58,533 bases of DNA from an uncultured Clostridia bacterium (GCA_944391785.1 CALXUX010000012.1:1-58533); one strand, 5' to 3'; counted from the stretch's first letter, positions 54,794-57,768 are shown. The notes: generated by a model from the sequence alone, not told the origin. Translations and numbers: made by a program.

Positions 54794-55402
54794 TTATTTA
54801 TCTGTATAAGTTATTACTCTTTTTTGAGTTTTGTTTGCATCTGGTGTTTGACTTTCTCCGTCTATCTCTTCTTGGTAATATACTCCTAGATATTCTTTGA
54901 ATTTCTTCCCTTTCATTTTATCATAAATTCCGCTATCATTCAAGTATATCCCTAAATTTCTCTCAAATTTCGCCTTTGTTTCACTGCTTGCACCATATAA
55001 TATTGCTTCTATAAATTCTTCTTTTTGACTGTCACTACCTAAAACTTCTTTTTCCAAGTCTATATAATATATTGGATCACTTCCACCTTCACTATTTCTT
55101 TTTTTATAAAGTCCGTCTCCATCTAAAAATGAAACATCAAAAACTATTTTATAATTCTCTTTATATGCTTTATAAATAGATGGAACAATTGTCTCTATTC
55201 CAACTAGTCTTTCAGTTAATATTTCTCCATTTTCATCTTTGTTTTCCTCTACATAGGTATAATCATATTCTCGATCATTATATTCTAATATAATTTGAGA
55301 AGTCCTTCTTGCCTCCCCAAAAGCATTTATACTAATAGAAAGGGCAAGAACAAATATTAATACGGCTGCTGCCATTTTTAATGCGTCTGCTGCATTTTCC
55401 AT
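54794..55402 (-). CDS. pilin-like protein, MENA-family paralog (202 aa)
   Basis: MENAADALKMAAAVLIFVLALSISINAF... shares the MENAxxAL plus hydrophobic-helix N-terminus. Confidence 0.5.
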   Translation of the reverse strand: MENAADALKMAAAVLIFVLALSISINAFGEARRTSQIILEYNDREYDYTYVEENKDENGEILTERLVGIETIVPSIYKAYKENYKIVFDVSFLDGDGLYKKRNSEGGSDPIYYIDLEKEVLGSDSQKEEFIEAILYGASSETKAKFERNLGIYLNDSGIYDKMKGKKFKEYLGVYYQEEIDGESQTPDANKTQKRVITYTDK

Positions 55403-55442
55403 TTTTTCTCACCCTTTCTTATTTACTTTTTATTAATTGTTA

Positions 55443-55880
55443 TTAATTTGATCCTGCGTCAGCAATTGTTACTTTGTCGATTAATCCTGTTTTTGTATTT
55501 GTTTTAGTTGTTACTTTATATGTTGCACCAGTATTTGCTGTTGCATAGGCAGTAGATCCATCAATTGCACCTGTTGGTTTAGTTCCAGTTTGCCATTTTG
55601 TAGCACTAACTGTAACTTGTATTTGTTTTGAAGTATCGTCTTGATATGTTACATTGTTTTGTTGAATTTGATTTAGTAGAGCATTTACTTGTGCTCCTCT
55701 TACATTTGTTCCTGTATATTGTGTAATTCTTGTATTAAATGAAGATATTTCTACTTCAGTCATAGCATTGTTGTTAACAACTCCTGCTGCTTGTTGATAA
55801 ATCATTATTCCTAATGATATTATTAAGATTGCAAGTAATATAGCTCCTGCAATAATTAGCGCTTTTGATGCGTTCTCCAT
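55443..55880 (-). CDS. pilin-like protein, MENA-family; candidate major subunit (145 aa)
   Basis: MENASKALIIAGAILLAILIISLGIMIY, then a T/A/G/N/Q-rich domain with very few charged residues. Strongest RBS in the operon (AAGGAGGAA), preceded by a 78-nt spacer. Confidence 0.55.
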   Translation of the reverse strand: MENASKALIIAGAILLAILIISLGIMIYQQAAGVVNNNAMTEVEISSFNTRITQYTGTNVRGAQVNALLNQIQQNNVTYQDDTSKQIQVTVSATKWQTGTKPTGAIDGSTAYATANTGATYKVTTKTNTKTGLIDKVTIADAGSN

Positions 55881-55958
55881 AATAAATTCCTCCTTAGTTT
55901 TTCTTATTTTTATTGTTCTATTGCTAAAATATATTTAGCAAATATTAATAACTTATTT

Positions 55959-56390
55959 TTATTCTGTTACCTGTTCAAATAACAGATATTTAACCTTTTT
56001 AGTTTCTTTATGGTATTCTAGTTTAGTACATTTGAATTTAATTTCGTTATAGTATTGTACAAACTTGTCCATACCGCCACCATAGAATGTTTCCATATTA
56101 TATGTTTTTTCATTATCTAGCATTTTTATTTCTATATTAATTGAATTCTTCCCATTATCAATATATTTTCCTTTTTTGTCTTTTAAAACTTCATTATATT
56201 CGTTGCTGTCAATTGCTTTATTTATAATAGTAGTTAATTCTGCTCCATAAATTTCTTTTTCATAATAGCTTTCAAATTGTAAATTTTCCTTTTTTGTCTC
56301 ATTATAAGTGATTTTATAATTCAAATATAAATAAGACATTCCTACAATTATTATGACTATCACTAAGAAAAATAATGCAATTTTTTTCAT
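55959..56390 (-). CDS. N-terminally anchored small protein (143 aa), no MENA motif
   Basis: MKKIALFFLVIVIIIVGMSYLYL plus a soluble K/E/Y-rich domain. Embedded in the operon. Confidence 0.45.
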   Translation of the reverse strand: MKKIALFFLVIVIIIVGMSYLYLNYKITYNETKKENLQFESYYEKEIYGAELTTIINKAIDSNEYNEVLKDKKGKYIDNGKNSINIEIKMLDNEKTYNMETFYGGGMDKFVQYYNEIKFKCTKLEYHKETKKVKYLLFEQVTE

Positions 56391-56454
56391 TTAATTTCCT
56401 TCCCGAATTATATCACTTATGTTTTTTGTTTTCAATATACTTGTAGCTATTTTA

Positions 56455-56985
56455 TCATTTTTTTTCAAAGATAACTCTATAAACCCTTTTTGTATATTCA
56501 CTAATAAAAGTTTTGCAACTGTATTGAGTCAAATCAGAAGTTTCAGGATCAGAGTTACTTTGCATATTTGCTAAGTCTTTAGTAATTAGTGTATTATAAT
56601 AATTTGTTATATCTTTGCTGTTAGAACCAAATCCTCTTTCTATATATCTTCCATTATAGTCTGAGATATCTGAATTTATAAATTGTACAGAAATATAACT
56701 ATCTTTTCCATCACCTGGTGTATTTCTTTTTGTATATTCGTAGTTTATATTATTCTCAGTTGCAAGATTTGCTGCTGTTATTACATCATAAATTGTAACG
56801 TTATCTTTTCCAACATACGAAGTAAATTGGCTATTAAATTGATTTATCTGATTTTGTTCGTTTTCTTTATGTAATTCGGCAGAAGCTGATCCAAATGTTG
56901 CAAATAAGTAAACTGCTAAAGATAATATAAGTATTCCAATCAGAACTCCTGCTGCCATTAATAATGCTTTTGATGCATTTTCCAT
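56455..56985 (-). CDS. pilin-like protein, MENA-family paralog (176 aa)
   Basis: MENASKALLMAAGVLIGILILSLAVYLF...INQFNSQFTSYVGKDNVTIYDV. 21-nt spacing from the upstream gene. Confidence 0.5.
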   Translation of the reverse strand: MENASKALLMAAGVLIGILILSLAVYLFATFGSASAELHKENEQNQINQFNSQFTSYVGKDNVTIYDVITAANLATENNINYEYTKRNTPGDGKDSYISVQFINSDISDYNGRYIERGFGSNSKDITNYYNTLITKDLANMQSNSDPETSDLTQYSCKTFISEYTKRVYRVIFEKK

Positions 56986-57006
56986 ATTTATACTCCTAAA
57001 AAAATG

Positions 57007-57768
57007 TTATTGCATTTTGCCATTATATTTAAATTCCATTTTTACAATTCTTCCTGTTTTTGTGTTGTAAGTTACTCCTGACTCTCCTTGTCTTTCGATT
57101 GAAGTACAGTCAAAATATGCTCTTTTAAATTGTACATATTCATAATATTTATAAACATCTTGTCTAATTTGACTACCTGGAGCTATTTCTCTCCAAGCAG
57201 ATACTTTCTTTTTCTTTGATGCTGAATTAAATCTTTCTACTGCTAGCATTTGTTCTGCTTGGTCATTTGTATCAATAAATATTTTAGTAAGTGCTGAAGT
57301 TAAATTTGTTAATGAACTTGTTCCATATTCGCTTTCTAAAGAATCAATTTCACTACTTATGCTATCTTCAAATTCATTGGTTGTTCCAGATATTATGTAT
57401 TGATTTTTTGTTATTAACCTGTTTTCGCCTTCTGGAGGAGCAATGTCACTTAGTTTTCCTGCAAAATCCATTACAATAGTAATTGGCTCATATGCTATTT
57501 CTTTTCCTTCTGTTCCTACTACTGATTTTCTTTCATTATAGTCAGTTGCTCTATTTAATAAAGAATATAAATCACTTCCTCTTACATCAGTTCTATTGTA
57601 AGTTTCATATTGATTATTAAATTCTACAACCTGCGCTGATCTTTCATTTCTTACATTTGTTTCTTGATATGCATTTAAATTACTAAATGTTAAAATCAAA
57701 GCTCCTAATATCATTAATCCAATCAGTACGCTTCCAGCCATAATTAAGGCTTTTGATGCATTTTCCAT
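57007..57768 (-). CDS. pilin-like protein, MENA-family paralog (253 aa)
   Basis: MENASKALIMAGSVLIGLMILGALILTF...VVEFNNQYETYNRTDVRGSDLYSLLN. GGGAGG RBS, 21 nt after the TadB/C-like gene. Confidence 0.5.
   Translation of the reverse strand: MENASKALIMAGSVLIGLMILGALILTFSNLNAYQETNVRNERSAQVVEFNNQYETYNRTDVRGSDLYSLLNRATDYNERKSVVGTEGKEIAYEPITIVMDFAGKLSDIAPPEGENRLITKNQYIISGTTNEFEDSISSEIDSLESEYGTSSLTNLTSALTKIFIDTNDQAEQMLAVERFNSASKKKKVSAWREIAPGSQIRQDVYKYYEYVQFKRAYFDCTSIERQGESGVTYNTKTGRIVKMEFKYNGKMQ

Follow-up and report, generated by a model that had tools for sequence, protein, structure and literature searches.

Four minus-strand open reading frames (ORFs) near one end of a 58,533-nucleotide (nt) stretch of DNA from an uncultured Clostridia bacterium (the window) encode proteins, here p253, p176, p145 and p202, that begin with the motif MENA[SA][KD]AL and a hydrophobic helix. 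We propose that these MENA proteins, together with the products of the neighbouring genes p143, p179 and p466, serve as the subunits of a Tad-like type IV filament that is very divergent, and that their N-terminus most likely remains unprocessed. We give this reading about an even chance. The genes lie in what appears to be a very divergent Tad-type pilus operon, which recurs in hundreds of uncultured gut Clostridia.

A sequence-only reading of this DNA had drawn attention to the motif and the helix, and all four ORFs were found as described (Table 1), each with a hydrophobic stretch of about 21 residues after MENA[SA][KD]AL. The corresponding DNA pattern, ATGGARAAYGCN7GCNYT, matched four times in the window versus 0.00 expected from 100 shuffles. 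In the ORF listing of the window, no earlier ATG, GTG or TTG followed the preceding stop upstream of any of the four starts. For p253, a TAA stands in frame immediately 5' of the ATG, with a GGGAGG ribosome-binding site upstream. Across related loci, 335 MENA starts were inspected. A Shine-Dalgarno core was present at 318, no alternative upstream in-frame start existed for 317, the upstream in-frame stop lay at a median distance of 5 codons, and no homolog with a longer leader was seen. Given these Shine-Dalgarno cores, the lack of alternative upstream starts and the nearness of the upstream stops, the Met of the motif is the true initiator throughout the family. Synonymous codons vary freely at positions 2-8 (for Glu2, 223 GAA and 103 GAG; at position 7, all four Ala codons), and therefore selection acts on the protein.

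Residues were counted at each position of 299 unique N-termini. M-E-N-A was near-invariant, with Met1 in 298, Glu2 in 296, Asn3 in 297 and Ala4 in 289, and it was also found in 148-149 of the 149 top representatives of 50%-identity clusters. Position 5 was Ser, Ala, Thr or Val. Position 6 was Lys or Arg in 225 sequences and Asp or Glu in 69, that is, charged in 294, and its residue was less conserved than M-E-N-A. Position 7 was Ala in 297 and Ser in 2, with Gly in none, and position 8 was Leu in 293 and Leu, Ile or Val in all 299. Farther along the helix, Ala11 occurred in 285 sequences, Leu15 in 280 and Phe or Tyr at position 28 in 257; position 12, which would be +5 after a cut behind position 7, was Gly, Ala or Phe. 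The segment before Leu8 had a constant length of 7 residues in every one of the N-termini. Renumbered for the archaeal-type cut that the sequence-only reading had suggested, these counts give a charged residue at -2 in 294/299, Ala or Ser at -1 in 299/299 and Leu, Ile or Val at +1 in 299/299.

For three of the four proteins the relationship extends past the helix, as had been claimed. Pairwise BLASTP beyond residue 33 connected p253, p176 and p145 (E = 1.5e-4, 5e-3 and 5e-2) through a common post-helix motif, F-N-x-x-[FIY]-x-x-Y...G...V/L...L-L-N. p202 has only the N-terminal helix in common with these three in the same comparison, and N51 and Y57 were invariant across the four-way alignment. 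The post-helix motif is also present in the product of the third slot, p143 (E = 7e-6 against p253), which clusters with the MENA family. p143 is without the MENA N-terminus; its own N-terminal class, MKK[IL]A[IL]FF, recurs across related loci, where its slot is conserved. Among the MENA paralogs, which range from 97 to 319 aa, conservation is extreme in the N-terminal helix, and the heads vary. None of the seven subunit-like proteins received a credible match when scanned against Pfam, NCBIfam and PHROGs.

The family is very broad. A search with p145 retrieved 7,190 proteins, all without a name or Pfam domain. A family profile made from the first 80 residues of the four paralogs was searched against 1.84 billion cluster representatives and matched 5,816 clusters of 50% identity at E <= 1e-3 and 3,317 at E <= 1e-10. 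In all of the top 150 profile matches, the protein's own residue 1 aligned to profile position 1, and 129 of the 149 top representatives retrieved started exactly with MENASKAL. The MENA motif is thus conserved far beyond this genome, so the sequence-only reading was not overturned on this point. Relatives are encoded in at least 536 stretches of species-representative genomes. The best 80 of these were all metagenome-assembled genomes labelled uncultured Clostridia, Clostridium or Eubacteriales, and where their isolate names show a source it is the gut of human, rabbit, mouse, chicken, sheep, goat or buffalo. For the family defined by this N-terminal module, no name was found in any source and no match in Pfam, NCBIfam, PHROGs or PDB. 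A search for literature describing a MENASKAL family, leaderless or unprocessed pilins, or Tad systems without a peptidase found nothing on this family.

The window ends inside the locus, and the upstream genes were read from L001-L006, longer contigs with the same protein. The operon encodes, in order, a CpaB/SAF-like protein, a 232-aa protein, a 278-aa protein, a 655-aa ATPase, a membrane protein and the block p253-p176-p143-[p145 x1-4]-p202-p179-p466. By ORF clustering, each of these genes was present in 66-78 of 81 loci. The exact subunit order of the block was observed 31 times, and other arrangements differed mainly in the fourth slot. The first protein (370 aa) matched the CpaB model TIGR03177 with E = 2.2e-7, below the cut-off and over its N-terminal ~75 residues only, and SAF with E = 1e-4. 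The 232-aa and 278-aa proteins are weakly ParA-like and, by position, may be counterparts of TadZ. The ATPase (L001 5906-7873) matched T2SSE above the Pfam cut-off (E = 1.3e-6) and TIGR03819 below its cut-off (1.8e-8), and its only relative in PDB was CpaF (E = 1.7e-10 with the single sequence and 2.7e-9 with a profile). It is a divergent protein and very highly conserved; its 90%-identity cluster has 454 members. Its N-terminus consists of a transmembrane helix, MTITNIVLMILVIAVAAYVIYY, and a region of ~250 aa without a family match, an arrangement that is probably unusual among TadA/CpaF proteins.

The gene behind the ATPase encodes a single polytopic protein of ~691 aa in 53 loci. Since it has transmembrane segments and its gene follows that of the ATPase, it may have a platform (TadB/C-like) role. 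In this species (447 + 251 aa) and in about 17 other loci, the gene is split into ORFs of ~433-447 and ~251 aa. The two ORFs overlap by 14 nt in L001 (7894-9979), where the tail of the upstream ORF is frameshifted (...GKRRKKSYGNN*) and the start Met of the second ORF corresponds to an internal Met of the fused forms. The split could represent either gene fission or a second frameshift.

This context, in which a Tad-type ATPase, a CpaB-like protein, weakly ParA-like proteins and a polytopic protein are followed by paralogs with a conserved helix and divergent heads, argues that the MENA proteins are substrates of a CpaF-like machine. Several broad marks of type IV filament subunits occur together here: a conserved hydrophobic helix, variable heads, paralogy, and clustering with ATPase and platform-like genes. 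The claim that the four proteins are pilin-like is supported by the conserved operon, in which their genes come after those for the CpaB-like protein, the CpaF-like ATPase and the polytopic protein.

AlphaFold2 modelled p145 from a 51-sequence alignment with a predicted local distance difference test (pLDDT) score of 85.9. The model consists of a helix (residues 2-32), a low-confidence linker (33-41) and an alpha/beta head with helix 42-53, strand 57-61, helix 62-78 and four strands. The post-helix motif maps onto the helix-strand-helix core. A single-sequence model of p145 was poor (pLDDT 52).

From these data we envisage the following mechanism. The machine would comprise the CpaB/SAF-like protein, the two weakly ParA-like proteins as TadZ counterparts, the membrane-anchored CpaF/TadA-type ATPase and the polytopic platform-like protein; it would extract the subunits from the membrane by way of their N-terminal helices and build a fibre by stacking them. 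p145 would be the major subunit, since the fourth slot is variable, is duplicated and holds the shortest paralog. p253, p176 and p202 might prime or cap the fibre, and the p466-family protein would display variable adhesive modules. Two modules were recognised at the C-termini of p466 orthologs, a type I dockerin (Dockerin_1, E = 3.9e-8) in L011 and a DUF11 repeat (E = 4.5e-8) in L044, both above Pfam cut-offs. Dockerin and DUF11 are typical extracellular modules, so an extracellular destination is indicated, which agrees with a filament. The differing modules suggest interchangeable adhesive or cohesin-binding tips. The subunits would be translated without a leader, and Met1-Glu2-Asn3-Ala4...Ala7-Leu8...Ala11...Leu15 would be kept as the start of one continuous helix. 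Glu2, with Lys6 or Lys9, would take over as buried charge pair from the Glu5 and N-terminal amine of classical pilins. Such a system would work without a dedicated prepilin peptidase.

Several observations favour the absence of processing. In known systems it is the mature N-terminus that is conserved, and the leader varies. Here M-E-N-A, the part that would be discarded, is the most conserved and is constant in number. Position 7 is never Gly, the residue that PilD- and TadV-type enzymes prefer and that archaeal substrates use freely alongside Ala. A4, A7/L8, A11 and L15 have helical spacing and fall on one face of the helix modelled from residue 2, as expected for packing in a fibre core. 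The A24-type motif G[GAS]GD.[KR] was absent, by regular-expression search, from the window and from 1.43 Mb of sequence surrounding 86 related loci; the window had no small ORF that was both polytopic and in the size range of a peptidase, and the conserved operon of 81 loci did not include a prepilin peptidase (TadV/CpaA, family A24). In addition, the helices of p179 (MGD...) and p466 (MKIQ...) begin 3-6 residues after Met1, in sequences quite unlike MENA. Methionine aminopeptidase should not remove a Met that is followed by Glu, so the mature N-terminus would be Met-Glu. An acidic residue at position 6 is accompanied by Lys at position 9 in 42 of 69 sequences, and with a basic residue at position 6, position 9 is basic in 0 of 225; this coupling straddles the proposed cut site, but it comes mainly from one orthologous subfamily and may represent a single evolutionary event. 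The sequence-only reading had left two alternatives for the leader. The FlaFind-type site pattern of a class III signal peptide is indeed present; the second alternative, in which the pilin has no leader and Glu2 takes the part of Glu5, agrees somewhat better with the evidence. We put the chance that the N-terminus stays unprocessed and that Glu2 stands in for Glu5 at just under even.

Other results weigh against a leaderless Tad-like filament, as does the reduced value of the coupling just described. The matches of the putative TadZ counterparts were poor, with Get3, ParA and Soj at E = 0.006-0.5 for the 278-aa protein and a bare match to MinD (E = 0.46) for the 232-aa protein. The platform-like protein had no T2SSF or other Pfam match in 30 orthologs and no PDB match by profile, and hhalign detected no internal repeat between its halves. 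The head of p145 has no structural relative: Foldseek of the model against PDB gave no match with E below 1, and therefore we make no structural assignment. PDB sequence searches with p145 alone and with a 36-column N-terminal profile yielded only chance transmembrane matches (best PsbX, E ~0.8) and no pilin. The test for a peptidase was a motif search rather than a hidden Markov model search, and it covered loci rather than whole genomes. Archaeal pilus loci often have no peptidase gene of their own, so absence at the locus is no proof of absence from the genome.

The last two points bear on a different account of the same Tad-like subunits, which we consider rather unlikely. MENASKA could be an ultra-short class III signal peptide cut after Ala7 by an archaeal-type (PibD/FlaK/TadV-like) aspartyl peptidase encoded elsewhere in the genome, to leave a mature N-terminus at Leu8 that is fully hydrophobic and uncharged, like that of many archaeal pilins. 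The conservation at -2, -1 and +1 speaks for such a cut, and KA|LI and DA|LK match the sites KA|IS, RA|LS and DA|VS of archaeal pilins that have been studied by experiment (PMC4371748, Table 1). Moreover, Tad systems are thought to descend from archaeal pili, in particular Epd-like ones (PMC6668835), and some type IV filament loci, for example MSH, are without their own peptidase and borrow one. The invariant length and near-invariant M-E-N-A of the would-be leader are nevertheless atypical, as class III leaders need only -1 and -2. Gly is missing at -1 from all 299 sequences, a cut in the p202 subclass would leave L-K-M-A..., which puts Lys at +2, the A24 motif lies near none of the 86 loci, and p179 and p466 of the same operon have different N-termini without the site.

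The remaining two alternatives depart further from a surface fibre, and we regard both as improbable. MENA and the helix may form a specialised Sec-type signal peptide or anchor, comparable to YSIRK-type motifs, in which case the proteins would be secreted or anchored surface proteins, perhaps cut after the helix by signal peptidase I, and cargo or accessory components rather than a fibre. The p176 subclass has an A-x-A-like sequence, FGSASA|E, just after the helix, but no conserved A-x-A site follows the helix family-wide. The same head occurs in p143 behind an ordinary MKK-plus-hydrophobic, signal-like N-terminus, which implies that the head can be exported without MENA, and the head is without a pilin fold match. 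On the other hand, the n-region is net neutral and always has Glu2 instead of being basic, the ~21-residue hydrophobic stretch is highly conserved across paralogs (A11, L15, F/Y28), unlike Sec signal peptides, and the genes are strictly linked to the CpaF-like ATPase operon. Alternatively, the MENA proteins may be pseudopilins of a short, membrane-embedded pseudopilus that acts as a secretion piston, in DNA uptake or in a sporulation-linked process. Seven different subunit-like genes resemble the pseudopilin sets of type II secretion systems (T2SS) or Com more closely, the gene for a SpoIVB-type peptidase lies directly downstream in 44 of the 60 loci with enough downstream sequence, and genes for a small acid-soluble spore protein (SASP) and SpoVG are nearby. 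This adjacency may be plain synteny, because the flanking housekeeping genes are also syntenic. A sporulation link is further opposed by the operon promoter, which is sigma-A-like (TTGATT-N17-TAAAAT) rather than sporulation-sigma-like. A pseudopilus also agrees poorly with a p145 slot duplicated up to four times, as with exposed major pilins, and with the dockerin or DUF11 surface modules on p466 orthologs.

Table 1. Coordinates of the putative subunit genes and associated features in the window.
Feature	Position	Strand	Description
p253	57768-57007	-	253 aa; MENA family, first slot of the block; starts MENASKALIMAGSVLIG; probable minor subunit
p176	56985-56455	-	176 aa; MENA family, second slot; probable minor subunit
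p143	55959-56390	-	143 aa; paralog, third slot; MKK-plus-hydrophobic N-terminus, starts MKKIALFF
p145	55880-55443	-	145 aa; MENA family, shortest paralog; candidate major subunit; slot holds 1-4 tandem copies in other species
p202	55402-54794	-	202 aa; MENA family, charge-swapped subclass (Asp6 + Lys9); probable minor or tip subunit
p179	54220..54759	-	179 aa; N-terminal helix MGDTLITIIAIALAAVLMF; putative TadE/F-like pseudopilin by position; in 78/81 loci
p466-family gene	52544..54137	-	Large protein with N-terminal helix; two frames; probable surface or tip adhesin
Platform-like membrane protein, C-terminal part	57790..58533	-	251-aa ORF; first 4 codons beyond the window end
Palindrome	54164..54196	.	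AGCTTGTAAT-N-ATTACAAGCT, between the p179 and p466 genes; 13-bp stem AATAGCTTGTAAT...ATTACAAGCTATT
SpoIVB-type S55 serine peptidase	51223..52455	-	PDZ_2 and Peptidase_S55 matches; 88 nt downstream of the locus, same strand

The last two subunit-like genes lie downstream of the MENA genes. p179 starts MGDTLITIIAIAL and had no Pfam, NCBIfam or PHROGs match. Orthologs of p466 begin MKIQNLAVIFIIIMLPIS and range in length from ~440 to more than 820 aa. In the window, frame 0 of p466 encodes MKIQSLAVIFIIIILPISLILTAYT from 54137, and the rest lies in the +1 frame that ends at 52544. The junction reads TAT-ACT-C-GGA-AAC (54068-54056, extra C at 54062), with CGG as the 0-frame codon and GGA as the +1 codon. 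CGG is presumably a rare Arg codon in a genome of 27% GC. An NNY-C-GGR-A shift site was found in L007, L012, L042 and L046, and p466 is unshifted in L008-L011, whose p145 proteins are more similar to that of the window. Since the unshifted orthologs have the same length and contain Y-[IV]-G-N-Q-V-K-T, the shift looks like a conserved programmed +1 ribosomal frameshift rather than gene decay.

The region 5' of the CpaB-like gene (L001 about 3020-3220, outside the window) is highly conserved, and the same region was found in 61 loci. It holds 2-4 tandem ATATTACAAAA repeats at an 11-nt period, followed by ATATTAACTTTTAATAACA and then by the sigma-A-like promoter. Two or more copies of the ATATTACAAAA repeat core were present in 47 of the 61 loci, versus a background of 0.1 per 260 nt. 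The conserved 5' untranslated region of the operon holds TTTTGTAA and a strong ribosome-binding site, AAGGGAGGAATTTGTC. The layout of the ATATTACAAAA repeats is reminiscent of the direct-repeat sites of OmpR/PhoB-type response regulators, which we offer as a candidate comparison. The core of the palindrome listed in Table 1, CTTGTAAY-N0-14-RTTACAAG, was present in 34 of 75 loci and has the ATTACAA core in common with the promoter repeats. It may act as an operator to which the same regulator binds, or else as a hairpin or attenuator conserved at the RNA level. A promoter and terminator scan of the AT-rich window was uninformative, with 57 promoter-like sites versus 55 expected, and an Rfam scan of the window and L001 found one tRNA as the only RNA element, and no riboswitch.

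The window comes from the chromosome of a spore-forming Firmicute (~27% GC) and holds genes for MurC, the SpoIVB-type peptidase and SpoVG; the SASP gene lies just upstream in L001. A phage or mobile element origin was rejected because the flanking housekeeping genes are syntenic across species. The SpoIVB-type peptidase gene is a conserved neighbour, which may reflect plain synteny or a functional link such as the processing of surface proteins; no spo0A gene was seen adjoining it here. Farther downstream (50556-50975, minus strand), a 139-aa protein is made of repeated EEL/KAE-rich coiled-coil units (ESLRQEFKAE...) and had weak apolipoprotein-like Pfam matches only. Its length varies between strains (139, 154 and 79 aa in L001-L006).

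Given that the family is very large and unannotated and that all examined loci are from genomes of uncultured gut Clostridia, the proposed filament may be an adhesion organelle of major importance in gut commensals that has so far been overlooked. The family would escape standard tools such as PilFind, Pfam and models of the MacSyFinder type. Retention of Met1 would have a simple signature, as trypsin would release the six-residue peptide MENASK only if Met1 is retained.

We compared the system with the known classes of type IV filament. The MENA proteins resemble archaeal class III pilins (the substrates of PibD, FlaK and EppA, such as Aap, Ups, PilA1-6 and Epd) in the charged -2, Ala at -1 and hydrophobic +1, in the helix of ~20 residues followed by a folded domain, in the lack of Glu at +5, which is shared by many archaeal pilins, and in that the peptidase gene of archaeal systems often lies outside the pilus locus. 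They differ in that the organism is a bacterium and the would-be leader is exactly 7 residues long, has an invariant M-E-N-A and is net neutral, with -1 never Gly. The expectation of a leader that is variable apart from positions -1 to -3 fails here. The MENA proteins had no match to the Pfam families of archaeal pilins, archaellins or class III signal peptides, and the closest relative of the ATPase is CpaF rather than FlaI or archaeal PilB.

With type IVa/IVb pilins and the pseudopilins of T2SS and Com (PilD/ComC substrates), the MENA proteins share a helix that is conserved across major and minor subunits while the heads diverge, and an invariant acidic residue near the N-terminus. By analogy, Gly/Ala at positions 12-13 and Ser/Gly at position 22 recall Gly14 and Pro22 of type IVa pilins. 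In contrast, Gly at -1, Phe at +1 and Glu at +5 are all missing from them, as is a basic leader, and no PilD/ComC-like gene is linked. None of the MENA proteins matched N_methyl, TIGR02532 or GspG-type models, and their N-termini do not conform to the PilFind rules.

The closest likeness is to Tad/Flp systems (type IVc; Caulobacter CpaA-F/PilA and the Gram-positive tad loci). The only recognisable motor is a CpaF/TadA-type ATPase; a CpaB-like SAF protein comes first, weakly ParA-like genes occupy the place of TadZ and a membrane protein follows the ATPase, all in one compact operon. Behind these come a small subunit gene that is repeated, several larger genes of the pseudopilin-like kind and a gene for a large TadG-like protein. 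Flp pilins are head-less helical hairpins of 40-80 aa whose leader ends in Gly and whose mature N-terminus is XXXXE[YF]. The MENA subunits, by contrast, are 97-319 aa long with a globular head (compare PMC10710030), have no Flp motif (G|XXXXEY) and gave no Flp_Fap or TadE Pfam match at E <= 1. The locus has no tadV or cpaA peptidase gene, whereas the canonical Gram-positive tad operon of Bulleidia begins with tadV (PMC12786226). The N-terminal transmembrane helix and the extra ~250-aa domain of the ATPase, and the undetectable similarity of the platform-like protein to TadB/C, are further differences. Three defining features failed in our tests, with no Flp motif, no T2SSF platform and no linked TadV. 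We do not file this system as a Tad system proper, although it would work like a Tad pilus.

Reviews treat four core components as defining for type IV filaments: pilins made with class III signal peptides, the prepilin peptidase, the ATPase that drives assembly and the platform protein. The locus described here may, with a probability that we place somewhat below even, represent a peptidase-free branch of these filaments, in which there is no leader, the initiator Met is kept, Glu2 rather than Glu5 is buried, and the head and the platform are unrelated in sequence to those described. If this is true, the peptidase step is not obligatory for a type IV filament, and these Clostridia offer a natural experiment on the purpose of the leader and of Glu5.

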